IMG/VR virus record: IMGVR_UViG_3300007639_000002
Span: 15,144-79,143 of that record
Reading direction: 5' to 3' (one strand)
From: a virus
Length of the DNA: 64,000 nucleotides
Of the stretch, positions 14,954 through 45,450 are shown piece after piece. How positions within the stretch are numbered: position 1 is the first letter of the stretch; each line of letters opens with the position of its first letter. A model generated the notes under the pieces. The model was not told the origin of the DNA. It made no database searches and saw only the letters and a program-made list of their open reading frames with translations. The position numbers were made by a program, and so were the translations under genes.

Positions 14954-14956
14954 TTT

Positions 14957-15747: not shown

Positions 15748-15748
<1 letters not shown>
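14957..15748 (-). CDS. Gly/Thr-rich structural protein
   Basis: Shares VYG.G.DG...LTIN..V....NG.RVFV with the 13397-14953 product. Confidence 0.6.
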
Positions 15749-17112
<1,364 letters not shown>

Positions 17113-29842: not shown

Positions 29843-30020
29843 ATACCTAGTATAGGGCTATCTAGGCGTTGTTTTTTGGTTAGCGGATTTTTGGAATAGG
29901 GCTATTGGGCCACTGGGCTGCTAGAGGGGGGTGGGTCCTGCCGGGCCACCCAGTAGTAGCGGCGACTTAACCATGGGGGGTATCCACAGTATAGCACCGC
30001 TACCTTACTGGTCACGAATC

Positions 30021-30215
30021 CTAGGCGAGTAACAACTCCCTGTGCTTCCGAGCCACTTCCATGTCTAACAGGTTCACCAGTGCATGAGCCAGTACGTCGT
30101 ACTCGGCTTCACGCCCTGCTAAGACTGCGCCAATATCATCCACCATTGTCTGCATCACATCTACCAATGCGACTGCTGTAACCATTTGCTTGCTGAGTTG
30201 TTTTGTTGTTGTCAT
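30021..30215 (-). CDS. Cassette ORF, hypothetical (MTTTKQ)
   Basis: Leaderless ATG 6 nt after TAAGGT; TAG lies inside the repeat. Confidence 0.7.
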   Translation of the reverse strand: MTTTKQLSKQMVTAVALVDVMQTMVDDIGAVLAGREAEYDVLAHALVNLLDMEVARKHRELLLA

Positions 30216-30254
30216 ACTGCCACCTTACCATGTCCCTGCTGGGAGTCACGATTC

Positions 30255-30446
30255 CTAGATTTCCTCTTCCCAGTCTGAGTTCAGGCGCTCCAATGCCCGC
30301 AGTTCCTCCGCCACATCAAATGCAGTAGCGCATGGTGTGCAGAAGTATAACTCAGTGAGCCACCTGTCCGAGTACATAGGCTCGTGCGTTGGGCTAGGTA
30401 TTGGAGCGTTGCATTCAACGCAGGTGTTTTGTGTTGTCGTTGTCAT
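30255..30446 (-). CDS. Cassette ORF, CxxC...CxxC zinc-finger protein
   Basis: CVEC and CTPC; leaderless start. Confidence 0.7.
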   Translation of the reverse strand: MTTTTQNTCVECNAPIPSPTHEPMYSDRWLTELYFCTPCATAFDVAEELRALERLNSDWEEEI

Positions 30447-30490
30447 GCTTCCAACCTATCACATGACCCTCTCAGGTCACGATTCCTACA

Positions 30491-30511
30491 TAATGAGAAT
30501 GATTCTCAACT
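30491..30511. promoter_or_regulatory. Fur/Zur-family-like box
   Basis: 7-1-7 palindrome TGAGAAT-G-ATTCTCA (30494-30508). Confidence 0.4.
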
Positions 30512-30513
30512 AA

Positions 30514-30529
30514 TGTTCCACGTGGAACA
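30514..30529. promoter_or_regulatory. parS-like site 2
   Basis: TGTTCCACGTGGAACA. Confidence 0.75.
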
Positions 30530-30549
30530 TTCCTAGAGTTGGGGCTATA

Positions 30550-30565
30550 TGTTCCACGTGGAACA
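30550..30565. promoter_or_regulatory. parS-like site 3
   Basis: TGTTCCACGTGGAACA. Confidence 0.75.
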
Positions 30566-30623
30566 TTGGTGCGGAGCGTAGGCAGGTATCCACCTACCCA
30601 CACCCACCCAGCCATTGCTGGCA

Positions 30624-30785
30624 CTACTTGGGAGCACATGATGCCCAGTGCTCCAATGCCCACTCTGCCCATGCGTTATGATCCAATGCCCACATATCCA
30701 GCGTGACAGTCTCGTCACAATAAACGCAGTGAGCGTTCAAGTACTGTGGGCATTCCATGTCGTTGATGTTCTGTGTTGTTGTCAT
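30624..30785 (-). CDS. Cassette ORF, 53 aa Cys/Trp-rich
   Basis: Hand-translated MTTTQNINDMECPQYLNAHCVYC...WASCAPK; below the ORF-track cutoff. Confidence 0.6.
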   Translation of the reverse strand: MTTTQNINDMECPQYLNAHCVYCDETVTLDMWALDHNAWAEWALEHWASCAPK

Positions 30786-30824
30786 GTAACCAACCTATCA
30801 TCTAGTGGCTCTGAGTCACGATTC

Positions 30825-30992
30825 CTAGTCCCTGTATTCTTGGGCGTTGTTGTAGTGATATAGAGCCATGGCGTACTGTTGCTTTTTCAGGTCTGCGTAT
30901 TTGCAAACCTCTGCCCTGTCTGCGTATTTCTTGGACAATCCCATGTAGTAGTCGTATTGCTCTTTATTGGTAAATTGTTTTGTTGTTGTCAT
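30825..30992 (-). CDS. Cassette ORF, 55 aa
   Basis: MTTTKQFTNKEQYDYY...; TAG inside the repeat. Confidence 0.65.
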   Translation of the reverse strand: MTTTKQFTNKEQYDYYMGLSKKYADRAEVCKYADLKKQQYAMALYHYNNAQEYRD

Positions 30993-31031
30993 GTCTCCAA
31001 CCTATCACGCCACCCACGTGAGTGACGAATC

Positions 31032-31226
31032 CTAGATAAATATATTCTGATACTCATTTTGCGCATAGTACTCAGTGCGTAACCTTTCAGCACTGTTCAT
31101 GAACCTACCCTCAGCCCGTGTTAGACCATAGGTGTACTCATGTGCCTTTAATGCATTCATCAGGTCTTCCAAAGCCTGCATTATTTTGATCTCAGTATCT
31201 GATAGTTGCTGTTGCGTTGTTGTCAT
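31032..31226 (-). CDS. Cassette ORF, hypothetical
   Basis: MTTTQQ; leaderless start; TAG inside the repeat. Confidence 0.7.
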   Translation of the reverse strand: MTTTQQQLSDTEIKIMQALEDLMNALKAHEYTYGLTRAEGRFMNSAERLRTEYYAQNEYQNIFI

Positions 31227-31265
31227 GCTTCCACCTTACCCTAGGGTCACCTTTGGTGACGATTC

Positions 31266-31433
31266 CTAGAACCTTGTATCTGTCACTGGGCGAACCTGCA
31301 TATCCCTATGGCTGAGCCAATAGACGTTGCAGGCTTGGCGACTGCCGACCATGACTACACACTTACGTGAAGAGTCATAGACTTCATGTGCTTTAGTGCT
31401 GGGCTTTACCTTTTTCATTTGCGTTGTTGTCAT
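31266..31433 (-). CDS. Cassette ORF, 55 aa basic protein
   Basis: MTTTQMKKVKPSTK...; TAG inside the repeat. Confidence 0.6.
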   Translation of the reverse strand: MTTTQMKKVKPSTKAHEVYDSSRKCVVMVGSRQACNVYWLSHRDMQVRPVTDTRF

Positions 31434-31472
31434 ATCCACACCTTATCAGGTCACCCTGCTGGGTCACGAATC

Positions 31473-31721
31473 CTACTTCAGCATTGCTTTCAGTTCAGCC
31501 TTCACCACACGTGCCGTGTCTCCACGCCATGCAGATGCATTGCTGAGGAAATAGGCGACGATATCCCTAGCGGAGTCGTACCCATATGAGCCACTGATAG
31601 AGTCCAGCGAACGCATAGCGTCTAGGTACGGCACAGCACCAAAGTATGGCTTTTTCCAGTCTGCACTAATGTCACGTGCAATGGTTGATATTGGGCGATG
31701 TTGTTGTTTTGTTGTTGTCAT
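31473..31721 (-). CDS. Cassette ORF, phage hypothetical protein
   Basis: RPISTIA..I..DW...YFGAVPYLDAM...WRG..AR.VKAELK. Confidence 0.7.
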   Translation of the reverse strand: MTTTKQQHRPISTIARDISADWKKPYFGAVPYLDAMRSLDSISGSYGYDSARDIVAYFLSNASAWRGDTARVVKAELKAMLK

Positions 31722-31760
31722 GTAATTACCTTATCAGTTAGTCGGGTTAGGTCACGAATC

Positions 31761-31970
31761 CTAGATGTTATGTCCATCTAGTTCAGTTATTTTGGCGATT
31801 GCCAAAGATAGTACAGGCTTCAGCCCTAAGAGGAACATCCACACGCCGATCATCTCAGTGCGTAGTTCATCATCCTTTAGGGCATCTTCCACGGCAGTGT
31901 TCCATTCACCGAGCCTGCCCAGTACTTCTAATGTTGATGGTAGTGGTTTGGTTGTTGTTGTCGTTGTCAT
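31761..31970 (-). CDS. Cassette ORF, hypothetical
   Basis: Leaderless ATG at 31970 (TAAGGT-N6). Confidence 0.65.
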   Translation of the reverse strand: MTTTTTTKPLPSTLEVLGRLGEWNTAVEDALKDDELRTEMIGVWMFLLGLKPVLSLAIAKITELDGHNI

Positions 31971-31979
31971 GTTCACACC

Positions 31980-32171
31980 TTACCAGCCTGCTGGCTCTAG
32001 TGACGATTCCTGATGCTCTTCTACTAGGTTGTCGTAGCACCATGTGCATACGTCAGTTCCCCAGTCTTCAGGGTCAAATCCATTATGCCCATCCACGATA
32101 GGGATCAGCATAGAAGATGCTCCACACCGTTCGCAGGCTCCGATATAAATGTTGTTGTTGTTGTCGTTCAT
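31980..32171 (-). CDS. Cassette ORF, zinc-finger-like
   Basis: CERC and CTWC; reads through the repeat and stops in the next -10 box. Confidence 0.6.
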   Translation of the reverse strand: MNDNNNNIYIGACERCGASSMLIPIVDGHNGFDPEDWGTDVCTWCYDNLVEEHQESSLEPAGW

Positions 32172-32210
32172 GTAATCACCTTACCACCTAGGAGCGTTAG
32201 GTCACGAATC

Positions 32211-32444
32211 CTAGATACCTTTCATATCGCAGATGTAATTGTGGCGAGCGTCAAAGTACCAGTCAGACTCTTGAAAGGCTTGCTCGTCGCTGGGCGTTCC
32301 ATCCTGTGCATATGCCATGAACTCTGCCCAGTTATCTAGGTAGTCGTCAGAGCCAATGTAGGACTCTTCCCATTCTTCTATATCTTCAGGTGTTACGACT
32401 AATTTAGCCGATTCCATGTCTTCCACAGATGTGTATGTGAACAC
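32211..32444 (-). CDS. Cassette ORF, very acidic protein
   Basis: Leader AACAACGACAACAACGGAGG and GTG start; D/E-rich. Confidence 0.65.
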   Translation of the reverse strand: MFTYTSVEDMESAKLVVTPEDIEEWEESYIGSDDYLDNWAEFMAYAQDGTPSDEQAFQESDWYFDARHNYICDMKGI

Positions 32445-32503
32445 TATGTGCCTCCGTTGTTGTCGTTGTTGATAGTTCTAACTTAGCACGTCACCCTGCT
32501 GGG

Positions 32504-32683
32504 TCACGAATCCTGCCGTGTGTCCATGTTCCACAGAATGCACTTAGCATCTTTTAAGATGTTGTATAGATTCATCTCTTCCCATGTCATGCCATAGTAC
32601 CCATCACGCTGGGTCAAATCAGCCATGAACATAGTAAGCGTTTCATACATTTCAGTGTTGGTTATTTTCTTTGCTGTTTTCAT
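32504..32683 (-). CDS. Cassette ORF, 59 aa
   Basis: MKTAKKITNTEMYET...; stops at the TGA within TCGTGAC. Confidence 0.6.
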   Translation of the reverse strand: MKTAKKITNTEMYETLTMFMADLTQRDGYYGMTWEEMNLYNILKDAKCILWNMDTRQDS

Positions 32684-32722
32684 ATCTTCACCTTACCATG
32701 TAGTCGGGTTGAGTCACGATTC

Positions 32723-32799
32723 CTAGTGGGTATATTTGGTTAGATTAGCCTCAATATACCAGTGAGGTGCTTTCCCCGCTAACCATGCGGGTTTTCGTT
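32723..32799 (-). ncRNA. Candidate double-pseudoknot RNA cassette
   Basis: Own cassette promoter, no credible ORF; both hairpin loops are complementary to consecutive segments of the 3' tail. Confidence 0.6.
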
Positions 32800-32838
32800 A
32801 ATCCCAACTTACCATGATGGAGTGTTGGGTTACGATTC

Positions 32839-32907
32839 CTAATAAAGGATGGCATTCAATGCCTTAGGAGGTGTCATGAATGCCACCCTCTATTAGTTGT
32901 CGTCGTT
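32839..32907 (-). ncRNA. Candidate hairpin sRNA with anti-SD loop
   Basis: Own cassette promoter; 20 bp stem with two G-U pairs; loop contains CACCUCCU. Confidence 0.6.
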
Positions 32908-32946
32908 AATCCCAACCTACCACGTGGGTAGGCTGGGTCACGATTC

Positions 32947-33372
32947 CTAGAGGCTGATATGCGCTCCTGAGAGCAAGTCTTCAACCTCATTGCGGATGGT
33001 GTCGCTGATGCTGTCACTGAAAGATGAGTTATCAGTGAAATCGTATTCATGGAGGATGTCGTTAATGCGATCCTCCAAAGCATCTACTACTTGGTTCATT
33101 ACCTTGTCACTGATTGCATTGACAAGTTGATTAAGCAATTCTTCCATGGTCATGTTGTTAGTGCCTTTCGTTGTTGTTGATGAGTTCACTTTATCAGGTG
33201 GTTGTACTGAGTCACGATTCCTAGACTCCATGGCGATTTGCTCTTCATGATACTCACGTAATAACTCTACGGTATAGTTCATGTAGATACCCTTTGCCAT
33301 GGCATCTTCTACTTCAGTCTTTGCCATTAGTAAATGGAACACTTTAAGTTGTTGTTGCGTTTCGTTGTTCAT
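32947..33372 (-). CDS. Two cassette ORFs fused in frame (second start at 33153)
   Basis: Repeat and promoter at 33211 lie inside the ORF; internal AAAGG-N-ATG. Confidence 0.6.
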   Translation of the reverse strand: MNNETQQQLKVFHLLMAKTEVEDAMAKGIYMNYTVELLREYHEEQIAMESRNRDSVQPPDKVNSSTTTKGTNNMTMEELLNQLVNAISDKVMNQVVDALEDRINDILHEYDFTDNSSFSDSISDTIRNEVEDLLSGAHISL

Positions 33373-33411
33373 GTAAGCACCTTATCAGGTGACATTGTTA
33401 GGTCACGATTC

Positions 33412-33639
33412 CTAGCGAATCTCTACAACCCTGCCTAAGCAAGTGAGTAAGTTGCCTACGCTCGTAGTGGTTTCCCCTGCCGTGGTGGTGATAACTGCAT
33501 CATCACCCACTACTTCTACAGAGATAACCCTTGTAATGATTGGGCGTGAGACAGGTGTCCATGATGGAATGACGATAAACTCGCCTTCTATAATTTGGTC
33601 AGCCCGTACTGTGAATGCTGGTTGTTGTTTCGTTGTCAT
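33412..33639 (-). CDS. Cassette ORF, hypothetical beta-rich protein
   Basis: MTTKQQ; leaderless start. Confidence 0.65.
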   Translation of the reverse strand: MTTKQQPAFTVRADQIIEGEFIVIPSWTPVSRPIITRVISVEVVGDDAVITTTAGETTTSVGNLLTCLGRVVEIR

Positions 33640-33678
33640 GGTTTCACCTTATCATGTTGAGTTGGTAGGTCACGAATC

Positions 33679-33990
33679 CTAGTATGACCTGAACACGTAA
33701 CCATCAAGTTCCCACACGTCACCACCTAGTTCTAGGTCACGTGCGAATGACTCATAGTCAAAGTATCCAGTTTTGACTGCTTCAGAAAAGATATCGTCTG
33801 CCAACTCTTCAGCGTACTCACGTACTGATGTGACTGCTACGTAGGCATCCTCAAATGCTGATACTTCGCTGTCGTAGTCTTTGGTTATGCCAAGGTTCCA
33901 GCAGTAGATGGCAAAGGCTTGCTCGTCTATGTTGTTGTCTTCTGCTACCTGTGCAATTTCTGCGTTGCTGTATTTATGTGTTGTTTCCAT
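33679..33990 (-). CDS. ardA: ArdA-like antirestriction protein (C-terminal domains)
   Basis: FEDAY...EYAEEL...YFDYESFARDLELGGDVWELDGYVFRSY; acidic. Confidence 0.75.
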   Translation of the reverse strand: METTHKYSNAEIAQVAEDNNIDEQAFAIYCWNLGITKDYDSEVSAFEDAYVAVTSVREYAEELADDIFSEAVKTGYFDYESFARDLELGGDVWELDGYVFRSY

Positions 33991-34029
33991 ACCTGTACCT
34001 TACCCTCTAGTAGTTGTTAGTCACGAATC

Positions 34030-34215
34030 CTAGAACGATGTTCCTACCAGCGCATTATCAAATGTGCGATAGATTACAATGCTCCTAGTTTGGTCTATAG
34101 ATTCCCACATGGATGCCAACCACGTTGGCAGGTGTGCATCATGCAGTGTGCGTATGTACGTTTGGGGGTCACCCTCTAGTTGATATTGTACTTCTACTTT
34201 TTTCGTTGTTGTCAT
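34030..34215 (-). CDS. Cassette ORF, hypothetical
   Basis: MTTTKK; leaderless start. Confidence 0.65.
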   Translation of the reverse strand: MTTTKKVEVQYQLEGDPQTYIRTLHDAHLPTWLASMWESIDQTRSIVIYRTFDNALVGTSF

Positions 34216-34254
34216 GGTTTCACCTTAGCATTCTGAGTTAGTGGGTCACGAATC

Positions 34255-34509
34255 CTACAACTCAAAAGAATGCAGTATCTTAGACGTTTCGTCTTGTGAA
34301 TGTTTATTGGATGTCCAAAAGTGAACCTCTGTACGTGTGTAGATACCACCATGGCACACCATGCCTAGGCGATTACGTGCTTCTTTTTCTGCACGTTCTT
34401 CATTGTCGTAGTCTGCACCACCTACGTAGTCTTCGTTGTTGTCCCAAAAGTGTACTGTGTACCCTGAAGCAATATCTTGATTCATGTTGTTGCCTTTCGT
34501 TGTTGTCAT
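34255..34509 (-). CDS. Cassette ORF, hypothetical
   Basis: MTTTKGNNM: leaderless ATG plus an internal SD-led ATG. Confidence 0.65.
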   Translation of the reverse strand: MTTTKGNNMNQDIASGYTVHFWDNNEDYVGGADYDNEERAEKEARNRLGMVCHGGIYTRTEVHFWTSNKHSQDETSKILHSFEL

Positions 34510-34539
34510 GTAATCAACTTACCACGTGGTGGTGTTAGG

Positions 34540-34905
34540 TCACGAATGCAGTTCCCGCATTTTGACCAACCCAACCTGATAATTGGCGGTATTGGTCAAG
34601 TTAAGCCACCAGCCAGTGACGAATCCATTTTCGTATTCGTCACAGATATGCTCGTTGTATTCGCCATGCTCGGTGAGAAGATCACCCAGTAGTTCGTTGA
34701 TGGATTCCCCTGCCCATTCACCTGATAGTGGTGATGGTGGCATGAAATCGTCGGGGAGATCACACTCGTCATATAGGCGAAGGAACTCTACATATGTTTC
34801 CTGCGTAGTGTTACCGTCAAAGATCCATGATGATGCATTCTTGCCAGCAACTAATCCACGAATGTATGCATCATATGCATCAGTTGTTTTGGTTGTTGTG
34901 TCCAT
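34540..34905 (-). CDS. Cassette ORF, acidic hypothetical
   Basis: PSPLSGEWAGES motif; D/E-rich. Confidence 0.65.
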   Translation of the reverse strand: MDTTTKTTDAYDAYIRGLVAGKNASSWIFDGNTTQETYVEFLRLYDECDLPDDFMPPSPLSGEWAGESINELLGDLLTEHGEYNEHICDEYENGFVTGWWLNLTNTANYQVGLVKMRELHS

Positions 34906-34914
34906 GTGAGTACC

Positions 34915-35139
34915 TTACCCTGCCTTGATGTCCAGTGACGAATCCTGCCATACTTCTTTGTCTTCTTTAAGTTTGTATGCCCATTTGTATGCTGTGTTCA
35001 TTGCTGTCCACATTTGGCTGTATGGGGAATTGAATGAGTCTTCTTGATGAGCGTGTAAGTTGTAGCACACTGATTCCAGTGCATCTATCGCATTAAATAG
35101 TTCTTCAAGTGTCATGTCTTCGTTGATGTCGTGTTTCAT
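34915..35139 (-). CDS. Cassette ORF, hypothetical
   Basis: Leaderless; stops in the next -10 box. Confidence 0.6.
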   Translation of the reverse strand: MKHDINEDMTLEELFNAIDALESVCYNLHAHQEDSFNSPYSQMWTAMNTAYKWAYKLKEDKEVWQDSSLDIKAG

Positions 35140-35178
35140 GTTGTCACCTTATCATTTTGTTGTTGGTAGTCACGAATC

Positions 35179-35688
35179 CTATCCATACACCACCTCACCA
35201 AAGAGAATGAATTGCAGAATGGAGTCTGCTGTGAGAGCGTCGTACCAACCATCAAAGGCATCATCATCGTTGAAATAGATGGCACGTAAGCATTGCAACG
35301 CAGTCTTACCCAGTTGTCCATGGTCAGGTACGTTCTCCTGTGAGAACTCACCTGTGCCTACCTTGACGATAAAATCTATAACCATTTGCTCGTTGATAGG
35401 GTAAGCCTTGCCATAGGTGAACCATTCATCCCAGTCGTTTATTCCTTCTTGAAAACCATGTTCTTTGTTGGCATACAGTGGGTGGGTTTTGTCCACCTCT
35501 GTTACTTCTTCTTCTACGTAGATGGTTGCGCTACAGTACTGATCAGTGTTACCCAATTCGTACTCTCCGTTTGCACTTCCCCATTTGTAGTTCTTGCGAA
35601 TCGCCCAGTACCCACATCCTAGTTCCAAAGCATCTGTAAGAATTGTGCAGGCTCCGTATGTCATTTGTTGTTTATTTGCTGTTGTCAT
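35179..35688 (-). CDS. Cassette ORF, acidic phage protein
   Basis: G.GYWA and C-terminal DA.TAD.ILQ..LFGEVVYG. Confidence 0.7.
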   Translation of the reverse strand: MTTANKQQMTYGACTILTDALELGCGYWAIRKNYKWGSANGEYELGNTDQYCSATIYVEEEVTEVDKTHPLYANKEHGFQEGINDWDEWFTYGKAYPINEQMVIDFIVKVGTGEFSQENVPDHGQLGKTALQCLRAIYFNDDDAFDGWYDALTADSILQFILFGEVVYG

Positions 35689-35727
35689 GTCATCAACTTA
35701 TCAGGTGAGTGTGCTGAGTCACGAATC

Positions 35728-36186
35728 CTACCAACTACTTTGATAGGAGAACTGGTACTCTTCGTCAAGAGACAGCGCATTTTTAATGATGGAAATTGAG
35801 TACTCTAGGCTCTCAAAGTACCACTCGTCGTACTCAATGTTGCCAAAGAAGAAACCACTAGCGGTGGGTAACAGGTCATCGGCAAGGCTATGGTCACCTA
35901 GAACCTGTTCGCAGACGTTCATTAACTCCGCAAGTTTCTCACGTGACACGTATGCATCTTGGCATTCATCTACGCCATCCTGTACGTTGTCCACGAACCA
36001 CTGGTGGATGGCGTTGGCTTTACGCCAGTAGCCCACCATGCACCGTACTGTGATAGATGGATAGTCAGTGTCTAGTTCAATGTCTAATACTTTCCTGACT
36101 GCATGGTACGCTTCATTAACGTCGTCACCGTAGTGTGATGCTGGTGAGAGGTAGCGTTCTGCTTTGAGGTACTGATCTAATCCCAT
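35728..36186 (-). CDS. Phage hypothetical protein (MGLD...YWRKANAIHQWF type)
   Basis: Recognisable motifs including LLPT.SGFFFG and YQSSW; SD AAGGA. Confidence 0.7.
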   Translation of the reverse strand: MGLDQYLKAERYLSPASHYGDDVNEAYHAVRKVLDIELDTDYPSITVRCMVGYWRKANAIHQWFVDNVQDGVDECQDAYVSREKLAELMNVCEQVLGDHSLADDLLPTASGFFFGNIEYDEWYFESLEYSISIIKNALSLDEEYQFSYQSSW

Positions 36187-36259
36187 GTTGTTATCCTTTT
36201 GTTGTTGGTTGTTGTTACTGAAGTTACTTTATCATGTTGTTGTTATGAGTGGCGAATCC

Positions 36260-36332
36260 TGTGGAATACACCGATTTCTACGACTAGGGGAAACAACAAC
36301 GAAACCCTAGGAGCAAACCGATGTACTCCACA
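36260..36332 (-). ncRNA. Candidate long hairpin RNA with a loop antisense to cassette 5' ends
   Basis: Stem GUGGAGUACAUCGGUUU/AAAUCGGUGUAUUCCAC with G-U pairs on the minus strand; inner stem CUAGGG/CCCUAG; loop UUUCGUUGUUGUUUC. Confidence 0.55.
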
Positions 36333-36336
36333 TGAC

Positions 36337-36531
36337 TCACCACTCATGTTCTTGTATAGATAATATCAGCACTAATGCGTTAAACATCAACAATATGCTA
36401 AGAAAACCTAAGAGCAAATTACCTGTATTTTCCATACCACCCATGAACCCAATGCTCAGGATGATAAGAGGCAGAATACAGCGTTTCTTTGTACGTGTCC
36501 AGCGATACCAGTTGGTCACCCTGATCCTCAT
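36337..36531 (-). CDS. Small two-TM membrane protein
   Basis: ATGA-coupled to the upstream ORF. Confidence 0.55.
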   Translation of the reverse strand: MRIRVTNWYRWTRTKKRCILPLIILSIGFMGGMENTGNLLLGFLSILLMFNALVLILSIQEHEW

Positions 36532-36776
36532 AACTCTTCCCCGTTTTCGTCAGTGAAGATCAGGTCAGAGATATCTGTCTGATGACCCCAGCCACATGAA
36601 AAATCATCAGTCTTGGCAAGATGTTCAATGTGCTGAACAACATCGTCTAACGTGATGTCCATGTCTTCATCTATGTCACTATTGAGAGTCCTGATGTCTT
36701 TGATTACGTCGTACACGTCATAAGTTATTACTTTTGTAACGTTGATGTACTTGGGTAGTTCTGTTGTTTCGTTCAT
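36528..36776 (-). CDS. Cassette ORF, acidic hypothetical
   Basis: Leaderless ATG at 36776. Confidence 0.65.
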   Translation of the reverse strand: MNETTELPKYINVTKVITYDVYDVIKDIRTLNSDIDEDMDITLDDVVQHIEHLAKTDDFSCGWGHQTDISDLIFTDENGEEL

Positions 36777-36815
36777 ATCCATACCTTATCTTGTTGTTAG
36801 TGTTAGTCACGAATC

Positions 36816-37217
36816 CTAGATATTGGCTTCCCAGTCAATATCAGAGTCATAAATGTCAATGCCAAAACGTGAGTCCCAACGCCATACTTCCTCAAAGGCA
36901 ACGGTATCTGCACGAACCATTACCCTGCCACGAATGAAACCCTCTTCAGGATTAGTCTCGTCTGCGTTCCATTGTTTCACGTACTCACCTACACACTCGT
37001 ACACGTAGCCCTGTAGGGCATCTACGTGCTGTGGGTTATCTAAACACCATGTGTTTTCTATCACGTCTACGAGCATCCCCATGACCATTAGTTTTGGGTT
37101 GCTTTCGCACATATTTATGATGCGATTGAGCATACGCTCTATTTCGCTTGCTGGTAATACACCATCCCAGTACGCCATGGTTTCTTGCTCGTAGTACAAG
37201 CCTTCACAGCCATCCAT
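36816..37217 (-). CDS. Acidic hypothetical protein
   Basis: TAG inside the repeat. Confidence 0.6.
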   Translation of the reverse strand: MDGCEGLYYEQETMAYWDGVLPASEIERMLNRIINMCESNPKLMVMGMLVDVIENTWCLDNPQHVDALQGYVYECVGEYVKQWNADETNPEEGFIRGRVMVRADTVAFEEVWRWDSRFGIDIYDSDIDWEANI

Positions 37218-37666
37218 TATGCTTCCAAATCTTCTAGTGGGTACAACACCTTACGTGCGTACACTTCTTCAATAGCGTCAAGAAGAACCTCATGGTAGTT
37301 GCTCCATGCTTTTTCATTGGAAATAGCAAACGCTGAAATAATCTCTAGTGTTTCTTTATCAACATCAAAAGCCCATACAACAGAGTCTTTGATATCGGGA
37401 TCGGGAGTACCCCAATGAACTTCTAATTCTTCACGAATAGAGGCAGGTGAGTAACAAACGCTGTTGCTGTAGTTCACGTCACCCCATCCTGTATGGTCAC
37501 CCATAAACTTCAATGAGATGCCATGCTTACGTGCAATGTTAGATATTTCTTCGTCAGAAAATGCTTCTAAGGCTGACTCTTCTGATGTAAGGTCATCAGT
37601 ATCAACGATATAGCAGTTGTCTGCATTAACAATAGTTCCTGATTGTGCGTCAATAAGTAATTTCAT
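37217..37666 (-). CDS. Cassette ORF, acidic hypothetical
   Basis: TAAGGT-N6-ATG. Confidence 0.65.
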   Translation of the reverse strand: MKLLIDAQSGTIVNADNCYIVDTDDLTSEESALEAFSDEEISNIARKHGISLKFMGDHTGWGDVNYSNSVCYSPASIREELEVHWGTPDPDIKDSVVWAFDVDKETLEIISAFAISNEKAWSNYHEVLLDAIEEVYARKVLYPLEDLEA

Positions 37667-37682
37667 AGTTGTACCTTAGCCT

Positions 37683-37925
37683 TCAGAGGCTGTTACTCAC
37701 GAATCCTAGTTTGTCAAGGATAGCGTCACGTACCCATTCAATATCAGGACAAATCTCACATACATCGTACTGATTGCATATTTCTGCCCATGCATCTTTG
37801 GTAAGTACTTCATAATCATCATCGTCATAAAGGCTTGATGCCCATTCGTATGAGTAGATGTCACAACAGATGTCGTCGTCATCTTTTAAGTTTGCGATAA
37901 TCTCTTTTAAGGTTGATACCTTCAT
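37683..37925 (-). CDS. Acidic hypothetical protein
   Basis: SD GAGGA; D-rich. Confidence 0.6.
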   Translation of the reverse strand: MKVSTLKEIIANLKDDDDICCDIYSYEWASSLYDDDDYEVLTKDAWAEICNQYDVCEICPDIEWVRDAILDKLGFVSNSL

Positions 37926-38062
37926 GTTGTTTCCTCTATTAGTTTTTCTAGTTTGTTAATGAGTTCTAGCATTTCATCTGTCAATGGACTGCACCACGTT
38001 GTCTTAACGTTACGTAGTTCTGTCAATAGCAGGTGTAAGCCAAAATCTAATTGCTGTGTCAT
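37922..38062 (-). CDS. 46 aa hypothetical protein
   Basis: Hand-translated MTQQLDFGLHLLL...; ATGA-coupled at both ends. Confidence 0.5.
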   Translation of the reverse strand: MTQQLDFGLHLLLTELRNVKTTWCSPLTDEMLELINKLEKLIEETT

Positions 38063-38340
38063 TGTGTTACCTCTACATTCACTATATTATGAACAGAGCC
38101 TGAGTCACGAATCCTAGAGAACGTGCTACCTTTTGTCGGGTCTGTGCGGATGAAATAGAATGAGTCTGCCCACTGATGGATATCGTCGGCAATGTCTTCA
38201 TTCATGGCGACTACCTGCCCATGCTCATGGTCAATATAGACTGCCAGTTCACCGTCTTCTGTTATATACAATCCGATATACCAATCGCCCATCATTATCT
38301 GTGCGGAGTTATCGGTTTGCTCAATGTAGTTGTTACTCAT
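38059..38340 (-). CDS. Hypothetical protein
   Basis: Reads through the repeat at 38104. Confidence 0.55.
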   Translation of the reverse strand: MSNNYIEQTDNSAQIMMGDWYIGLYITEDGELAVYIDHEHGQVVAMNEDIADDIHQWADSFYFIRTDPTKGSTFSRIRDSGSVHNIVNVEVTQ

Positions 38341-38582
38341 AAACAGAACCCATTACAACGTGGGAATCCGCAGGCTGGGCAGTAAGACTCTTCTTCTTCT
38401 TCTTCTTCGTCTTTTGTGATGCCAAAGATGGTATAACCAGCCTCAACCAAAAGGTCAGCAACTAGGTCTAATGACTCACCATCGGTGTACTCGTACTCTA
38501 GGTCTTTGGGATTAGAACCTTCAACACGCTTTTCTAAGATGTTGATGATTTCTTGAATGAGTTCGTCGTTTGCTGTTGTCAT
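38337..38582 (-). CDS. Cassette ORF, acidic protein with C-terminal Cys cluster
   Basis: MTTAND; poly-E; CPACGFPRCNGFC. Confidence 0.65.
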   Translation of the reverse strand: MTTANDELIQEIINILEKRVEGSNPKDLEYEYTDGESLDLVADLLVEAGYTIFGITKDEEEEEEESYCPACGFPRCNGFCL

Positions 38583-38591
38583 ATCATCAAC

Positions 38592-38873
38592 TTACCATAC
38601 TGGTGGTGCTAGGTCAGGATTCCTGAGAGAAGAGGTATTTGGGATTACGTCACAGTTCATTAAATAAATGGCGTTGCTGAGTAGTGATGAAAGTTCATCT
38701 TCATTGTCAATGTACTCCCCGTCACCAAGATAAGCAACAGACCATTCATGTGTGTCGTTGTGCTGTACTGTGCCGTCAGAGAAATGCTCTTCCTCAGCGT
38801 TAGTATCCCATTCCCACTTGTTGGTGGATGAATCGTATGAGACTATGAAATAGTGTGTATGGTTTCCGTTCAT
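38592..38873 (-). CDS. Acidic hypothetical protein
   Basis: Start at MNGNH (ATGA coupling, GAGG SD). Confidence 0.55.
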   Translation of the reverse strand: MNGNHTHYFIVSYDSSTNKWEWDTNAEEEHFSDGTVQHNDTHEWSVAYLGDGEYIDNEDELSSLLSNAIYLMNCDVIPNTSSLRNPDLAPPVW

Positions 38874-39031
38874 TGTGTTACTTCCTCTATGTCTGTTGTG
38901 TTCCATGTTTCTTGCTCGTCTACACACCATGACTCGTTGCTGTCAAAGAGTTGTTTAGCCTGTTCAATGCTGTCGGCATCTACTTCGTGGCGGTAGTGAG
39001 TTACTTTTTCGTATGTGAGTGTGTACTTCAT
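38870..39031 (-). CDS. DpnD/PcfM-like small protein
   Basis: MKYTLTYEKV...EVDADSIEQA. Confidence 0.45.
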   Translation of the reverse strand: MKYTLTYEKVTHYRHEVDADSIEQAKQLFDSNESWCVDEQETWNTTDIEEVTQ

Positions 39032-39222
39032 GCTGGTTCTTCCTCTTCTACATCTTCTACATCCCATGGAGTGTTCCACTCACGAAAGCCCCACATATCT
39101 TTTGACTCTAAATCGTCATCTGTGAACTTATCGTAAGCCTCTAGCGCACCCTCTTCTGAGTCTGCTTTAATTTCGTAGCAGTGGCTAATTACTTCATCTA
39201 CACGTACTAAATAAGTTTTCAT
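39028..39222 (-). CDS. DpnD/PcfM-like small protein
   Basis: MKTYLVRVDEV...EIKADSEEGA. Confidence 0.5.
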   Translation of the reverse strand: MKTYLVRVDEVISHCYEIKADSEEGALEAYDKFTDDDLESKDMWGFREWNTPWDVEDVEEEEPA

Positions 39223-39282
39223 GTTGTTCCTTTCGTTGTCGTTATTTACAACTTACCATTAGAAGTGTGTTGGTCACGAATC

Positions 39283-39702
39283 CTACGTAGCGTCACTCAT
39301 GACGAATGCCGATACACAAGCCTGCTCGTACTCTTCTGCATTGCGTACCCCATAGAAGAAATGGTCACCAGCACCTGTAGTAATCTCTGCCCACGTCATC
39401 AGTGAGTCTGTTGTGATGTCTCCATTGTCTAGGATCACTGTTCCCCACATAGCGTCGGCAACAGACATGACGTACTCTTTAATGTTTTCAGCCATATCAA
39501 AATGATCTACGTAGTCAATACGCCACCTGCCTTCACAGGGGAACCCACTCTCTAGGTCTACTGGCTCATTCTCATTGGCAGGTATAAACCCCACAAGTGT
39601 AATGTCATCTACATTCTCCACCAGCATTGCTAGGCGGTCATACTTTTGGTTAGAGTCCGATGGCACTACGCACCTCTTCTTCGCAGGCTTCACGTGCTTC
39701 AA
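39283..39702 (-). CDS. Acidic hypothetical protein (start uncertain)
   Basis: TAG inside the repeat; 5' end overlaps the neighbouring gene. Confidence 0.55.
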   Translation of the reverse strand: MKHVKPAKKRCVVPSDSNQKYDRLAMLVENVDDITLVGFIPANENEPVDLESGFPCEGRWRIDYVDHFDMAENIKEYVMSVADAMWGTVILDNGDITTDSLMTWAEITTGAGDHFFYGVRNAEEYEQACVSAFVMSDAT

Positions 39703-40249
39703 TGTATGCGTTGTCTACACGCTCCCACATGGTGTCCATGTCAGTATCCTCAAAACTACCCTCTACCGTGATGTTCTCTGTGAACGAAGAATGCCATTGA
39801 CCGTCATGGTATGAACTAGCACCTGCAAAGCCCATGCCCTGCTCGTCATAAGACAAAACAAACTTAAAGTTTGGATACAACGTAGAGATATGCTCAAAAG
39901 CCTTTTCGGGTGGTGCCCATGCTGAGTTGAAGTAAAACGAACGGTAGCCGATGTCTTCGCCACCCATCTCAGTATCGTAATCACCCCACTTGGTTCCCCA
40001 GTTGTCACAACACCAGTCGTACCAATCCTTGTGACCGTACTTGGCGATGTTCGCCTCTTGTTGTATGCGATGCTCTTCTGCTTTATCTGCACCCATGAAG
40101 CCTGCCACTGTCTCGTATAGTTCTGTAGGGCAAGGGTAAAGAGAACGTATGATCTTTATACGCCCGTCTACTGTGATGTCTTCTACAAACTTCTGTAGTG
40201 CTAATTCGTTACCCCATACGTAGAGGTTATTACTGCAATCGTTAGGCAT
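39650..40249 (-). CDS. DUF1281/YubB ferredoxin-like protein
   Basis: MPN.C.N, WYDWCCDNWGTKW, F.SAWAPP, Y.E.GMGFAG. Confidence 0.75.
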   Translation of the reverse strand: MPNDCSNNLYVWGNELALQKFVEDITVDGRIKIIRSLYPCPTELYETVAGFMGADKAEEHRIQQEANIAKYGHKDWYDWCCDNWGTKWGDYDTEMGGEDIGYRSFYFNSAWAPPEKAFEHISTLYPNFKFVLSYDEQGMGFAGASSYHDGQWHSSFTENITVEGSFEDTDMDTMWERVDNAYIEAREACEEEVRSAIGL

Positions 40250-40583
40250 TTACTTTCCAATCTTCTATGATGCGGTTATTTTTCATGTCTTTTACAAGTA
40301 GGCGTACCCACTCAGACGTATTTGCAAATCCAACTTCTTCGCCGTCGTCGTACTCAACTGGGTACACGGTGACCATGATGTTTTCATCACCGAACTCATC
40401 GTTATAGTCCCATGCAAAAGTGTTGAAATCAAAAGCCAAATCCCCGATGATGATAGATTCCCATGCATCTTCGTCGCCAGTGAACTTACGGCGAGAACGG
40501 TGATTCTTCTTAAGTATCTTGTAAGCGTGTTTCATTAACGCTTTTTTATTTTGTTTAATGTCTTGAAGAGTTGATGTTTTCAT
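40242..40583 (-). CDS. Cassette ORF, hypothetical
   Basis: TAAGGT-N-ATG leaderless start. Confidence 0.6.
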   Translation of the reverse strand: MKTSTLQDIKQNKKALMKHAYKILKKNHRSRRKFTGDEDAWESIIIGDLAFDFNTFAWDYNDEFGDENIMVTVYPVEYDDGEEVGFANTSEWVRLLVKDMKNNRIIEDWKVNA

Positions 40584-40622
40584 ATATGCACCTTATCATT
40601 GAGAGTGGTTGAGTCACGAATC

Positions 40623-40829
40623 CTATTGCTGTTCAATAAGAAAAGATGGGCGTTCAATAGTTGAGTGAGTACCCTCTACGACTGTGATGCCGTAGTGAAC
40701 TTCACCCCAACCTAAAATGTCTGTAGGGTCATTGCCTAACAATGCTTCGTACACAAGGTCTTGTGCCTGCATTTCGTTCTTGGCTTTGACAAAGTATGTT
40801 CCTGTTGCTGTTACTGTGTAGTAGTTCAT
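40623..40829 (-). CDS. Cassette ORF, DpnD/PcfM-like
   Basis: MNYYTVT...VKAKNEMQA. Confidence 0.5.
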   Translation of the reverse strand: MNYYTVTATGTYFVKAKNEMQAQDLVYEALLGNDPTDILGWGEVHYGITVVEGTHSTIERPSFLIEQQ

Positions 40830-40858
40830 ACCGCCACTTTAACTCACGTGATGGCTGA

Positions 40859-40882
40859 GTCACGAATCCTAGGAATCGTGAC
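40859..40882. promoter_or_regulatory. Back-to-back divergent cassette promoters sharing CCTAGG
   Basis: gtcacgaatcCTAGgaatcgtgac, with a -10 box on each side. Confidence 0.85.
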
Positions 40883-40928
40883 TGAAGCAGGTAGAGTGCT
40901 AAGTTGTGTTTATGGAAAGGGACAACAC

Positions 40929-42818
40929 ATGAATGGTCTTACACCACGACAACAACGTGAAATACGTGAAGAACTAGACAAACGTCTTACGCCATTAGAA
41001 ATGGTGAACTGCGTTGATGACTGGATTACGTTGAACGAACTTGACAGGCTTACCTTTAGGGGAGCCTCTGAGTTACTTGACTATATCGCACGGTTGCCTG
41101 TAGAGAGGACTCCTGCGTTAGCGCACGTTCCATCTACCGCCACCAAGATCATCGTCAATAGCGCACGAGGGGTTTGTGCGTTATGTGACGAAATGGTAAC
41201 GGCTGGGCAGGGGCATAAAGCCTTTGTCAATGGGGCATGGAGTGTTTATCATGCCGTAGACGTTTGCCCTGCCGTTACCGTGACTCCTGTCGTTACATAT
41301 TCGTCGGGCTTGCGTAAGCAACTTGATGATTTTGTACAAACGTTAGACAAGACAGAGCCACCGATTCTCCCTGATGAATCATTATTTAATCTTTCTAATG
41401 CACACCAATTTGACATAGATTTTGATCTTGAATTACCGCTATTGGGGTACCAAAAGGCGGCGATTGAATATGCACGTCGTACTCACCGTACCCTTGTATG
41501 TCAAGACATGGGGTTGGGTAAAACGCCTATCGGCATTGCCCTGACTCATATTGCTCTTAATGAGGGTCACAAGGTGTTAGTGGTTGTACCGCCAAACCTT
41601 GTCTACCAATGGACATCGGAGTTCAAGAAGTTTGCTCCATGGATTAAGGTGGGCAGTGTACGTGGGCGTAAGGTCGGCAAGTTGCCCAAGACGGATGTAC
41701 TCATTATCGGGGACTCCATCGTTGAGGCATGGCAGAATGTCCTTGCGGAAAAGTACACCAGCATCATTGTTGATGAGGCACACCGCTTTAAGACTGAATC
41801 CAGCGGGCGTTCTAAGGCTCTGACTCGTATTGCATCGTTTGTTCCCAAGGATGGATACTGCGTTCTGCTATCGGGAACCATCATTCCTAACCGCCCATCG
41901 GAGTTCATATCGCCACTGCGTATCATTGGCAGGCTTGAGCCTGTATTCGGTACTAAGAAGCAGTTTCAGATTAGGTACTGCGATTATCAGATGGTCAATG
42001 GGTTTCCTGTGACGGGTGGAGCCAGCAACGTGACAGAGTTAAATACTTTGTTGCGTAGCACGTGCTACACACGTACCAAGAAAGTAGATGTACTAGATGA
42101 CCTGCCACCTAAGCGCAGGGCACAACTAGACGTAGAACTAACTGAGACATCCATGCGTAAGTACCGTAAGGCTGAGGAGGATTTCCTTGCCTTTGTGTAC
42201 GAGAACTATGGGAACGATGCTTTTCTCGCTGCATCCAAAGCACCTGTGATTACACAGATAAATAAACTCAGGCAACTACTGGGTGAGGCAAAGATAGATT
42301 CTGCAAAGGAGCACATACAGTCCTTACTGGACTCAGGTGAGCAGGTCATTGCCTTTGCGTACCACACCAATGTCCTGAAGACTCTCAAAGAGCATTTTGA
42401 GGATCAGGGCGTAGTGATGGTTGCCGGTGGTATGACCGCTGAGGCTAAAGACAAGGCTGTGCAGAAGTTCACTAGCGGTGAGGCACGACTGTTCTTAGGT
42501 CAGTACGAAGCAGCCTCAGTAGGTCTTAACCTACAGGTCGCCAGTCACGTGGTCATGGTTGAGATGCCATGGTCACCTGCTACTGGTTCACAGGCAGAAG
42601 ACAGGGCATGGCGTTACGGCAACAAGAATGCTGTAGTGGCATGGTGGCTCACTGCCATTGACCCCAATGCCCCCACCATTGACTCACGTATGTGGAGTCT
42701 CCTGAACGCAAAGGCAGAGACCATCTCAGCCTGTTTAGACGGGTGGGGAGAAGACATGAAGGCTGAAGCAGGTAGCATTACCGCCCTGCTACTTCAAGAC
42801 ATGATGAGTGCTTCGTAG
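40929..42818 (+). CDS. SNF2/HARP-like helicase
   Basis: DMGLGKT, DEAH, LLSGT, GLNLQ, QAEDRAWRYG; start MNGLT after SD GGAAAGGG. Confidence 0.85.
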   Translation: MNGLTPRQQREIREELDKRLTPLEMVNCVDDWITLNELDRLTFRGASELLDYIARLPVERTPALAHVPSTATKIIVNSARGVCALCDEMVTAGQGHKAFVNGAWSVYHAVDVCPAVTVTPVVTYSSGLRKQLDDFVQTLDKTEPPILPDESLFNLSNAHQFDIDFDLELPLLGYQKAAIEYARRTHRTLVCQDMGLGKTPIGIALTHIALNEGHKVLVVVPPNLVYQWTSEFKKFAPWIKVGSVRGRKVGKLPKTDVLIIGDSIVEAWQNVLAEKYTSIIVDEAHRFKTESSGRSKALTRIASFVPKDGYCVLLSGTIIPNRPSEFISPLRIIGRLEPVFGTKKQFQIRYCDYQMVNGFPVTGGASNVTELNTLLRSTCYTRTKKVDVLDDLPPKRRAQLDVELTETSMRKYRKAEEDFLAFVYENYGNDAFLAASKAPVITQINKLRQLLGEAKIDSAKEHIQSLLDSGEQVIAFAYHTNVLKTLKEHFEDQGVVMVAGGMTAEAKDKAVQKFTSGEARLFLGQYEAASVGLNLQVASHVVMVEMPWSPATGSQAEDRAWRYGNKNAVVAWWLTAIDPNAPTIDSRMWSLLNAKAETISACLDGWGEDMKAEAGSITALLLQDMMSAS

Positions 42819-42893
42819 GATTCGTGACTACGTACACCCCTGAGATAAAGTAACAATAAGAAAGAGGCAAAGCCTCTCAACCAAAGGAAACAC

Positions 42894-43925
42894 ATGAGCA
42901 AAGAAACGTTCAAGACATTAAACACAATGACGTTGATCGGCAACACCGACAAGCGCAACTCAAAGGCATGGCACTATCGTGCAGACCTACAAGGTGATGA
43001 GCCAAACCACTATGCAGGAGCAATCCCCGTAGAGGAAGTACGCCGTCGCTTGTTCAACTGGCAGGCTATTGAAGCACCAGTGTTCGTGGGCATCACAGAT
43101 GGAGACAATAAAGTAGTGCGCTACGTACAACAAAATGATCGCAAGGCAATTATGCGTAACGACAACAACCATGTAATGGGTGTGTTCAAGGACTCATACG
43201 CCATCCACCAATACGACGAATGGCTCATTGAGAACGTCAGCACCATCATTGACGATCACCAACTGGTCATTGACTCAGCCGGTGCTTTACGTGAGGGTGC
43301 TATTGCATGGGTAACCATTTCTATGCCCGACAACGTAGAAACGTCTGCTGGGTTCCCTGTTCGCCCATATCTCCTTGCCACCACCTCACATAACGGCACT
43401 ATTGCCACCACCTACAAGCAGGTGTACAACGCTCCAGTATGTGACAACACGCTGTTCGCAGGGTTGGCTGAAGACGGGGCACAGCACAAGACACGCCACA
43501 GTAAGCACAGCGTCAATCGCATCCAGTCAATCCGTGATGCTTTAGACATTGTGTTCACCATGACAGAAGACATCGTTGCTGAGATTGAGCGCCTGTCAAG
43601 TATTACGGTCAGTGACCGTGAGTGGGATGCCATTGTGAATCGCATTGTGCCAGTGGGTATCAGTGGTGAAGTAGCACAGTCTGCTATCTCTAAGATGGAG
43701 AATAAGCAAGAGGTAATTCGTAACATGTACCGCAACGACGCAATGGTGTCACCTTGGGCAGGCACTGCGCTGGGTGTGCTTCAGGCATTCAACACCTTCA
43801 ACCACCACGTGTCGGGTAACGACAAGACACGCTCTGAGCGCAACGCACTGAACGCCATCAACGGCAAGATTCAGCAGTCAGACATCAAAGTAATCCAAGC
43901 CATCAACGAATTGGTGTTGGTGTGA
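42894..43925 (+). CDS. DUF932 family phage/plasmid protein
   Basis: AWH, SAGAL..G...W, YLL.TTSHNG, VCDNTL, GTALG.LQA. Confidence 0.8.
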   Translation: MSKETFKTLNTMTLIGNTDKRNSKAWHYRADLQGDEPNHYAGAIPVEEVRRRLFNWQAIEAPVFVGITDGDNKVVRYVQQNDRKAIMRNDNNHVMGVFKDSYAIHQYDEWLIENVSTIIDDHQLVIDSAGALREGAIAWVTISMPDNVETSAGFPVRPYLLATTSHNGTIATTYKQVYNAPVCDNTLFAGLAEDGAQHKTRHSKHSVNRIQSIRDALDIVFTMTEDIVAEIERLSSITVSDREWDAIVNRIVPVGISGEVAQSAISKMENKQEVIRNMYRNDAMVSPWAGTALGVLQAFNTFNHHVSGNDKTRSERNALNAINGKIQQSDIKVIQAINELVLV

Positions 43926-43936
43926 CAGGTGCTGTA

Positions 43937-43979
43937 AAGGATGGGGGGTTCAGTCCTATGATTGAACTCCCCAGCCTTA
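43937..43979 (+). terminator. Hairpin after the DUF932 gene
   Basis: GGGGGGTTCAGTC-CTAT-GATTGAACTCCCC; no clear U tail. Confidence 0.35.
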
Positions 43980-43987
43980 AGCACGTA

Positions 43988-44269
43988 ATGGATTTGGACT
44001 GGCGTGAGCATTCTGCCTGTTCCACGGTATCTAAGAATGTGTTCTTTGACTACAACTCAGTGAGTCTCCTTAAGGTACAGAAGAAGGCATACGAGCGGGA
44101 GGCATTAGATACTTGTGCCAGTTGCCCTGTACACACCCAGTGTTACGAGTTCGCTGTTAAGAACAACGAGAAGTACGGAATATGGGCAGGCACATTCCCT
44201 GACCAACGCAAGGCACTGTACAAGATTTATAAAACTACAGGTGTTCTAGAAACTCTACAAGTTGTTTAG
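43988..44269 (+). CDS. whiB: WhiB family transcriptional regulator
   Basis: W...SAC, C..CPV...C, YGIWAG. Confidence 0.85.
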   Translation: MDLDWREHSACSTVSKNVFFDYNSVSLLKVQKKAYEREALDTCASCPVHTQCYEFAVKNNEKYGIWAGTFPDQRKALYKIYKTTGVLETLQVV

Positions 44270-45311: not shown

Positions 45312-45450
45312 GTTTCTCCAGTTCGTAAACCTTGTTGAGTCTCTTCTTACATTCGTGTGTTGGTGGCTCAGGAATCGTAACACCGATACCTACAGATACC
45401 CCACATACTGAACATTCATATTGTGTTATCTGTGTCATTGTTTTATCCTA

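Follow-up and report, generated by a model that had tools for sequence, protein, structure and literature searches.

A compact double-pseudoknot RNA of a new family in two groups of aquatic phages

The locus and its cassette array

Here we describe a double-pseudoknot RNA (hereafter the knot) whose 63-nt core lies on the minus strand at positions 32791-32729 of the window, the 64-kb stretch of DNA analysed as a whole, which is part of the 79-kb record of an uncultured virus. The surrounding region is an array of about 30 short minus-strand units (cassettes; 30011-40882), with a few plus-strand units at 40871-45381. The units follow a common plan: AGGAWTCGTGAC, a 14-15-nt spacer often ending in TG, a TAAGGT-type hexamer and 6 nt, after which, in most units, the A of an ATG at the predicted +1 opens a small ORF. 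Motifs like AGGAWTCGTGAC occur 34 times in the window, against 3.65 expected. Judged by this layout, the array looks like a series of extended -10 promoters that would give leaderless mRNAs. The TAG of the cassette motif is often the stop codon of the preceding gene, and many cassette proteins start with MTTT, coded ATG-ACA-ACA-AC.

Among the cassette proteins, only one could be assigned to a Pfam family: an ArdA antirestriction protein of 103 amino acids (PF07275, 38.5 bits, E = 2e-9), encoded at 33682-33990 (-), 900 nt upstream of the knot in the same array. The others are ORFans. Because of ArdA and the ORFans that make up the remainder, the array looks like an early host-takeover or anti-defence region.

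The knot fills a cassette that carries a promoter-like unit and lacks a protein gene: the unit starting at 32840 contains no ORF of at least 25 codons. Its features, in minus-strand order, are as follows, where H1 and H2 denote the two hairpins, PK1 and PK2 the two loop-tail helices, and J1/2 and J2/3 the linkers.

32829..32840 (-): cassette motif AGGAATCGTAAC, supplying the -35 region of the promoter-like unit that recurs in the array
32708..32823 (-): presence/absence polymorphism, 116 nt, cassette-sized, with 15 nt shared at the joint
32806..32811 (-): TAAGTT hexamer, -10-like, aligned with the TAAGGT/TAAGTT box of the other cassettes
32799 (-): A, the predicted +1 of the knot cassette, 6 nt after TAAGTT, placed from the shared cassette architecture
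32775..32791 (-): hairpin H1, with a 5-bp stem CCCGC/GCGGG (32791-32787 with 32779-32775)
32786-32780 (-): H1 loop AUGGUUA, 7 nt, of which nucleotides 2-7 are the 5' strand of PK1
32768..32774 (-): linker J1/2, GAAAGCA, A-rich
32749..32767 (-): hairpin H2, with a 5-bp stem CCUCA/UGAGG (32767-32763 with 32753-32749)
32762-32754 (-): H2 loop CUGGUAUAU, 9 nt, of which nucleotides 3-9 are the 5' strand of PK2
32743..32748 (-): linker J2/3, 6 nt
32737..32742 (-): tail segment 1, UAACCA, the 3' strand of PK1 and exact complement of UGGUUA in loop 1
32736 (-): single A between the tail strands
32729..32735 (-): tail segment 2, AUAUACC, the 3' strand of PK2 and exact complement of GGUAUAU in loop 2
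32713..32724 (-): motif of the next cassette, 4 nt past the RNA core, preceding a 59-aa ORF at 32683-32507

The promoter and +1 of the knot cassette are predictions from the repeated cassette architecture; they would place the start of H1 8 nt past A32799. No terminator is found 3' of the knot in the window, so transcripts must run on into the next cassette, and the RNA may perhaps exist only inside longer read-through transcripts. RNA run X20 contains one 259-nt contig, which covers 32407-32665 in the neighbouring gene and says nothing either way about the knot.

Two further segments lie in the same part of the window. The adjacent cassette (32840-32948 (-)), also non-coding, holds a hairpin of ~20 bp (stem about 32896-32844, with two G-U pairs) whose 18-nt loop includes CACCUCCU, similar to the 3' end of 16S rRNA; this hairpin may act as an RNase III site or as an anti-Shine-Dalgarno-like RNA. 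Past the last cassette motif, a GC-rich leader of ~150 nt (29843-30000 (-)) contains UGGUUA and, 95 nt on, UAACCA, that is, the two 6-mers of PK1. Its fold z-score is only -0.9, and the match may be coincidence.

Fold and covariation of the RNA

The original prediction had drawn two hairpins and two loop-tail helices at this locus, and both the sequence and this four-helix layout hold letter for letter on the minus strand. The helices comprise 23 base pairs (H1 5 bp, PK1 6 bp, H2 5 bp and PK2 7 bp), engage about 73% of the nucleotides and follow the strand order A-B-A'-C-D-C'-B'-D'. A script for this topology, which requires two perfect 5-bp hairpins whose loops each form at least 6 perfect pairs with consecutive tail segments, returned one site on both strands of the window, the knot itself, and no match in 60 block-shuffled windows (about 7.7 Mb). 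Nested-only folding scores the element as unremarkable (z = -1.5 to -2.3), because such folding cannot model pseudoknots.

No nucleotide separates the stems of either hairpin-tail pair, as in classical H-type pseudoknots, and coaxial stacking is therefore expected: H1 and PK1 should form one stack of 11 bp, and H2 and PK2 another of 12 bp. Loops of 1 and 2 nt would span the deep grooves of the 6-7-bp stems, whereas the A-rich J1/2 and the 6-nt J2/3 would cross the minor grooves of the 5-bp stems, all of these lengths being within known limits; the gene 32 pseudoknot of T2 and T4 has a one-nucleotide loop. By analogy with loop 3 of H-type pseudoknots, J1/2 should lie in the minor groove of H1. 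With such stacking and loop lengths, all four helices can coexist, and the fold would consist of two short stacks hinged by one A (32736).

To retrieve homologues, IMG/VR and JGI metagenomes were scanned with exact patterns, and covariance-model searches followed. This gave 12 further distinct copies, or 13 sequences with that of the window. Most copies were fetched by patterns that fix the letters of PK1, and the sample is small (13), related and biased towards conserved PK1 and H2. One copy, L135, was retrieved solely by a linker-based pattern that fixes only linker and H2 letters. Scanning with the exact 17-mer of H1 returned 25 loci, among which only L020, L031 and L040 are true copies and the others are unrelated hairpins. 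Pattern-scan hits in coding DNA were chance matches (L042, L044-L048, L050-L057, L087, L091, L094, L097, L099, L100, L102, L113, L115-L117, L132-L134 and L136-L140); chance hits were dropped after inspection or by model scores. No true copy with the canonical loop-tail pattern was found in 185,579 bacterial and archaeal species genomes, nor was there a blastn match to the knot among GenBank phages. Relatives of the window phage found through its helicase (L009-L016) added no further copy from that search (L135, reached by the linker pattern, excepted), and relatives found through the cassette motif (L141-L146) added none either.

In the alignment of the 13 sequences (A8; 23 pairs), 97.3% of cells form standard pairs, compared with 32-39% in controls in which the 3' partners were slid by 1-3 columns; none of 500 shuffles matched the observed pairing and covariation. 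Paired cells amount to 98.5% in H1 and 100% in both H2 and PK1. Compensatory changes affect 15 of the 23 pairs, including three of five in H1 and three of five in H2. In the loop-tail helices, whose covariation had been proposed as a check on the original prediction, three of the six pairs of PK1 (informed only by L135, L114 and both L063 copies) and six of the seven pairs of PK2 are compensated. PK2 is wholly rewritten in L031 (GUAGAC/GUCUAC) and in L135 (GUGGGG/CCCCAC, an all-GC helix), and PK1 shows U-A to C-G, G-C to A-U and A-U to G-C swaps in L063 (copies 1 and 2), L114 and L135. G-U pairs in L063 copy 1, L101 and L135 would read A-C on the opposite strand and thus fix the minus-strand orientation.

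The core measures 62-66 nt in every copy, and each helix is individually stable in all of them. J1/2 is 7-8 nt long (11 in one copy) and starts R-A-A, its second-position A being invariant; J2/3 is always 6 nt and ends in an invariant C; and the A between the tail strands (32736) is invariant in 13 of 13 sequences. In total, five unpaired bases are invariant. That the knot is a real, conserved, structured RNA is, in our judgement, virtually certain, and we regard as established its four helices and strand, its narrow length range, its lack of coding capacity and its independence of neighbouring genes.

Comparison with catalogued RNAs supports the original prediction of a novel structured RNA outside the known ribozyme and riboswitch families. 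No Rfam 15 family matches the 64-kb window at its gathering score, and nothing credible appears at E ≤ 10 in window 32600-33000, L020 4500-5000, L135 or L063. Full-text literature searches, and a preprint on phage non-coding RNA arrays, yielded no description of a comparable fold. We class the knot, which has no match in Rfam, as a new RNA family with a new fold; the claim of novelty covers family and fold, not function.

Several specific identities were considered and rejected. A tRNA or tmRNA would conflict with the absence of any ARAGORN tRNA/tmRNA gene and of any T-arm motif in the window, and of an Rfam match at the element. The 11-codon ORF named in the original prediction, whose ATG lies inside loop 1, does exist in the window, but it is not conserved: the ATG is ACG in L063 copy 1 and L135, and a stop at codon 5 leaves 4 codons in L031, L096, L089, L085, L088 and L114. 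A plus-strand terminator is rejected because the A-run before H1 belongs to the window alone and is missing in most homologues, and a riboswitch or cis-regulatory leader because what lies downstream varies between unrelated ORFans, tRNA-like RNAs and other RNA modules. An anticodon-loop mimic (loop 1 with U at position 2, reading GGU) does not fit a loop that covaries with the tail, with the variants ACGGUUA, AUGAUUA and AUGGUUG. An anti-Shine-Dalgarno role of CACCUC in H2 fails because that sequence is not conserved, and an aminoacylatable 3' end because no conserved CCA follows PK2.

Genomic contexts and gene exchange

Eleven of the 12 further copies reside in large lake phages of ~50-200 kb (contigs of 48-203 kb), where the knot is part of a non-coding island right after a conserved 340-aa gene without known family; GenBank phages gave no tblastn match to this gene. 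In most of these copies, a tRNA-like structure starts 4-6 nt after the knot, with a T-arm, an ACCA end in some copies and 18 bits against the Rfam tRNA model. In L020, L031 and L114, the knot follows by 10-12 nt a conserved 21-nt motif, which elsewhere in the lake phages stands 8 nt before tRNA-Asn genes. L063 carries two diverged tandem copies, 2 nt apart, each with its own compensatory changes. Whole-record searches found one knot locus per genome, with a single copy in four of five records and two copies in L063.

The lake-phage islands contain other structured segments. The tRNA-like RNAs past the 340-aa gene (L020 4670-4752; L090 2090-2170 (-); L114 8003-8120; and L059, L066 and L068 around 2600-2720) have an acceptor stem, a T-arm (GGUUCGAAUCC) and often ACCA, lack normal D and anticodon arms, and are missed by ARAGORN. 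Those of L059, L066 and L068 start with GGGGAUG and have a G3-U70 pair like that of the tmRNA/tRNA-Ala acceptor. A conserved motif of ~48 nt (L020 4540-4588; L119 10480-10530; L031 10598-10648) is built from an outer helix (GGGG/CCC), a covarying hairpin, UUAAACGAC and a further hairpin, ACAC-UGUG-GUGU. It precedes tRNA-Asn genes (by 8 nt), ORFs and the knot, has no Rfam match, and may serve as a promoter of a phage polymerase or be one more RNA module.

A second pseudoknot module, 'motif B', lies just downstream of the knot in L088 and L090 and around 2560-2650 in L059, L065 and L068. It comprises a 5-bp hairpin with an 11-nt loop that pairs with downstream sequence (CCGU/ACGG versus CUGU/ACAG covariation), then GUAAAA and a hairpin with a CUCU-containing loop, a topology unlike that of the knot. 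L020 5073-5130 and L031 10880-10940 match the Pistol ribozyme model weakly (15.8 bits versus a gathering score of 34.5); the P1 of this motif covaries between L020 and L031 and a pseudoknot between loop and downstream sequence is possible, but no G-U site is evident. Finally, a conserved segment with GGGAAAGUCUGCGGGC and later AUAGAAGAC..GCUUAU (L020 4860-5020, and downstream of the tRNA-like RNA in L085, L095 and L114) recalls the P4 strands in RNase P RNA, without an Rfam RNase P match at E ≤ 10.

The 12th copy, in L135, belongs to the window lineage: its contig encodes a helicase (L010) that is 81% identical and marks it as a relative of the window phage. Here too the knot ends a non-coding cassette bearing a promoter-like unit, and the next cassette motif follows directly; the genes on both sides differ from those of the window. 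A different long hairpin lies 5' of the knot in the same cassette. The knot moves as a unit of its own, delimited precisely by H1 and PK2.

Population variation points to an optional element. DNA run X9 contains a 2089-nt contig, ~97% identical to the window, that joins 32707 to 32824 and retains the neighbouring hairpin cassette and both flanking genes. A strain that lacks exactly the 116-nt cassette indicates that the knot cassette is dispensable, and the cassette comes and goes as the repeated promoter motifs recombine. The run also records a second cassette-scale polymorphism, at window 30621-31025, where the X9 contig has 3 nt in place of 403 nt.

The window phage shares more with the lake phages than the knot. 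A block of ~7 kb (window 8833-15766) corresponds to 12.7-19.8 kb of G003, the 203-kb knot carrier, at 30-87% amino-acid identity. Among its genes are those for a tryptophan halogenase (63% over 494 aa) and a 2OG-Fe(II) oxygenase, as well as fibre- or collagen-like ones. The block is evidence of gene exchange or of a shared host: it implies that the two phage groups exchange genes or draw on a common gene pool. A search for proteins common to the window phage and the 203-kb carrier returned this halogenase, oxygenase and fibre block together with RecA, and gave no RNA-binding candidate. The window encodes its RecA-family recombinase and a family A DNA polymerase at 57798-58832 and 59541-61613 (-), respectively; the nearest cultured relatives of the polymerase are in Streptomyces phages (30-34% identity). 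The similarity of the polymerase, together with the leaderless-type promoters, points weakly to freshwater Actinobacteria as candidate hosts.

Possible roles and relation to known systems

We tentatively favour, at somewhat less than even confidence, a stand-alone early small RNA whose shape would let it act in trans, as a decoy or mimic that binds a protein. The gene would encode a non-coding RNA of 62-66 nt, from an uncatalogued family, that folds as two interleaved H-type pseudoknots. In the window phage, its own cassette promoter would express it early, with a start ~8 nt upstream of H1 and amid host-takeover and anti-defence genes, and in the lake phages an RNase P cut of the following tRNA-like RNA would set its 3' end. 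A host or phage protein would then bind the RNA as a decoy or mimic of tRNA-like size. Because nearly all bases are paired, the RNA is expected to act through its shape, and antisense pairing is unlikely; because the flanking genes differ between contexts, it is not cis-regulatory. The promoter-like unit of its own in the window lineage and the slot among tRNA-like genes in the lake phages suggest that the RNA is made in its own right, and the cassette-sized indel, the nearby ArdA gene and the gene exchange between phage groups support an accessory role.

Two other roles deserve attention, each of which we consider unlikely. The knot could be a new small self-cleaving ribozyme that punctuates RNA arrays, with a first half resembling pistol and a different core; it would separate cassette transcripts here and tRNA-like or other small RNAs in the lake phages. 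The compactness of the double pseudoknot, its constant linker lengths and its five invariant unpaired bases suit such a catalyst, and its first half, with a P1-like hairpin, a 6-bp loop pseudoknot and an A-rich linker, is like pistol. The RNA islands also hold the weak pistol-like motif (15.8 bits) and tRNA-like RNAs, and the tandem copies of L063 abut with 2 nt between them. However, no Rfam ribozyme model matches at E ≤ 10, there is neither a P3 helix nor a conserved G-U where pistol is cleaved, and the order of helices, set against known secondary structures, is unlike that of HDV-like, twister and pistol ribozymes. As the sequences are only moderately diverged, the invariant bases are weak evidence.

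The knot could instead serve in cis, as a stability or processing module that blocks exonucleases or offers a site to a processing enzyme. In favour of such a module, the knot has no terminator after it, so that transcripts must read into the next cassette; the neighbouring cassette is a hairpin of ~20 bp of the type cut by RNase III; and most lake-phage copies are followed after 4-6 nt by a tRNA-like structure that RNase P would be likely to cut. We nevertheless hold this improbable: the upstream and downstream partners change from one context to the next (one or another ORFan gene, a tRNA-like RNA or a different pseudoknot module), the lake-phage knots sit amid stable RNAs rather than mRNAs, and both relatives of the window lineage give the knot a promoter-like unit of its own.

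The remaining readings fare worse. A small-molecule aptamer without an expression platform, for example a sponge for a metabolite or an immune nucleotide, would suit an accessory element in an early region of anti-defence type, and small riboswitch aptamers are of comparable size and pseudoknotted compactness. The knot, however, matches no Rfam riboswitch and is associated with no gene class that hints at a ligand, and we know of no precedent for such a sponge; this role is very unlikely. Of the functions that the original prediction offered as examples, a mimic of the pseudoknotted type III antitoxin ToxI, directed against a host abortive-infection endoribonuclease, now appears the least likely and is hardly credible. 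Phage pseudo-ToxI is a known precedent, and the knot is indeed a pseudoknotted phage RNA in an early region, but it occurs as a single copy per genome with a unit of 63 nt rather than as an array of identical 34-45-nt repeats, the tandem copies of L063 have diverged, each with its own compensatory changes, and no toxin gene is seen. That there is no functional RNA at all, but a chance structure, a plus-strand terminator (H1 followed on that strand by TTTTCGTT, which was called terminator-like) or an 11-codon peptide gene (the ORF being present), is refuted by covariation in all four helices, by the lack of matches in shuffled sequence, and by homologues most of which lack the A-run before H1 and have an ORF that is cut to 4 codons or has no ATG.

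Whatever its role, new natural RNA folds this small with clean covariation are rare, and earlier ones have in many cases proved to be ribozymes, aptamers or mimics of proteins. At 63 nt and 23 bp, the interleaved double knot lends itself readily to crystallography, cryo-EM scaffolding, chemical probing and cleavage assays. Two distinct groups of aquatic phages share it horizontally as an optional module, and its early takeover and antirestriction setting in the window phage raises the idea that phages deploy compact RNAs, beside proteins, as accessory weapons or processing devices. Were the knot a ribozyme, phages would be using it to cut RNA arrays into units.

Known systems resemble the knot in part. 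HDV-like and twister ribozymes are also small and contain two pseudoknots, but the order of their helix strands in published secondary structures (a nested arrangement of P1, P2, P3, P1.1 and P4, or of P1, P2 and P4 with T1 and T2) differs from that of the knot, which has no Rfam match to them. ToxI and pseudo-ToxI share with it a pseudoknotted RNA usable by phages against host defence; ToxI, however, consists of tandem identical 36-nt units cut by the toxin, as opposed to one 63-nt unit per genome. The pseudoknot domains that precede the tRNA-like structures of the plant RNA viruses TMV and TYMV recall the lake-phage arrangement, in which the knot is directly 5' of a tRNA-like structure. By contrast, the knot belongs to DNA phages, has no tRNA-like partner in the window, and matches those domains in neither sequence nor topology. 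The T4 RNAs rnaC and rnaD (species 1 and 2) are likewise small stable RNAs amid phage tRNA or tRNA-like genes. They are set apart, by description, in being twice as long and not known as double pseudoknots, and the knot of the window stands in an early gene-cassette array rather than a tRNA cluster.

The Pistol ribozyme (RF02679) is closer. In both RNAs, the loop of a 5' hairpin forms a pseudoknot of ~6 bp downstream, an A-rich linker directly follows the hairpin, and the segment past the 3' strand of the pseudoknot pairs back between linker and pseudoknot; Pistol is also common in phage DNA and similar in size. The knot differs in having no P3, with a single A where P3 and the G-U cleavage site would be, and in having an additional hairpin, H2, whose loop holds the would-be P2 strand. 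At E ≤ 10, the element is not matched by the Pistol model, which needs 34.5 bits. In its local geometry, each half of the knot resembles the H-type pseudoknot of the T4/T2 gene 32 leader, also of phage origin: no nucleotide lies between the stems, a loop of 1-2 nt spans a stem of 6-7 bp, and a longer loop spans a stem of 5 bp. Unlike that leader, the knot does not precede a conserved gene and no autoregulated protein is evident; and, unlike single H-type pseudoknots, it consists of two that are interleaved, so that the third loop of each carries part of the other.
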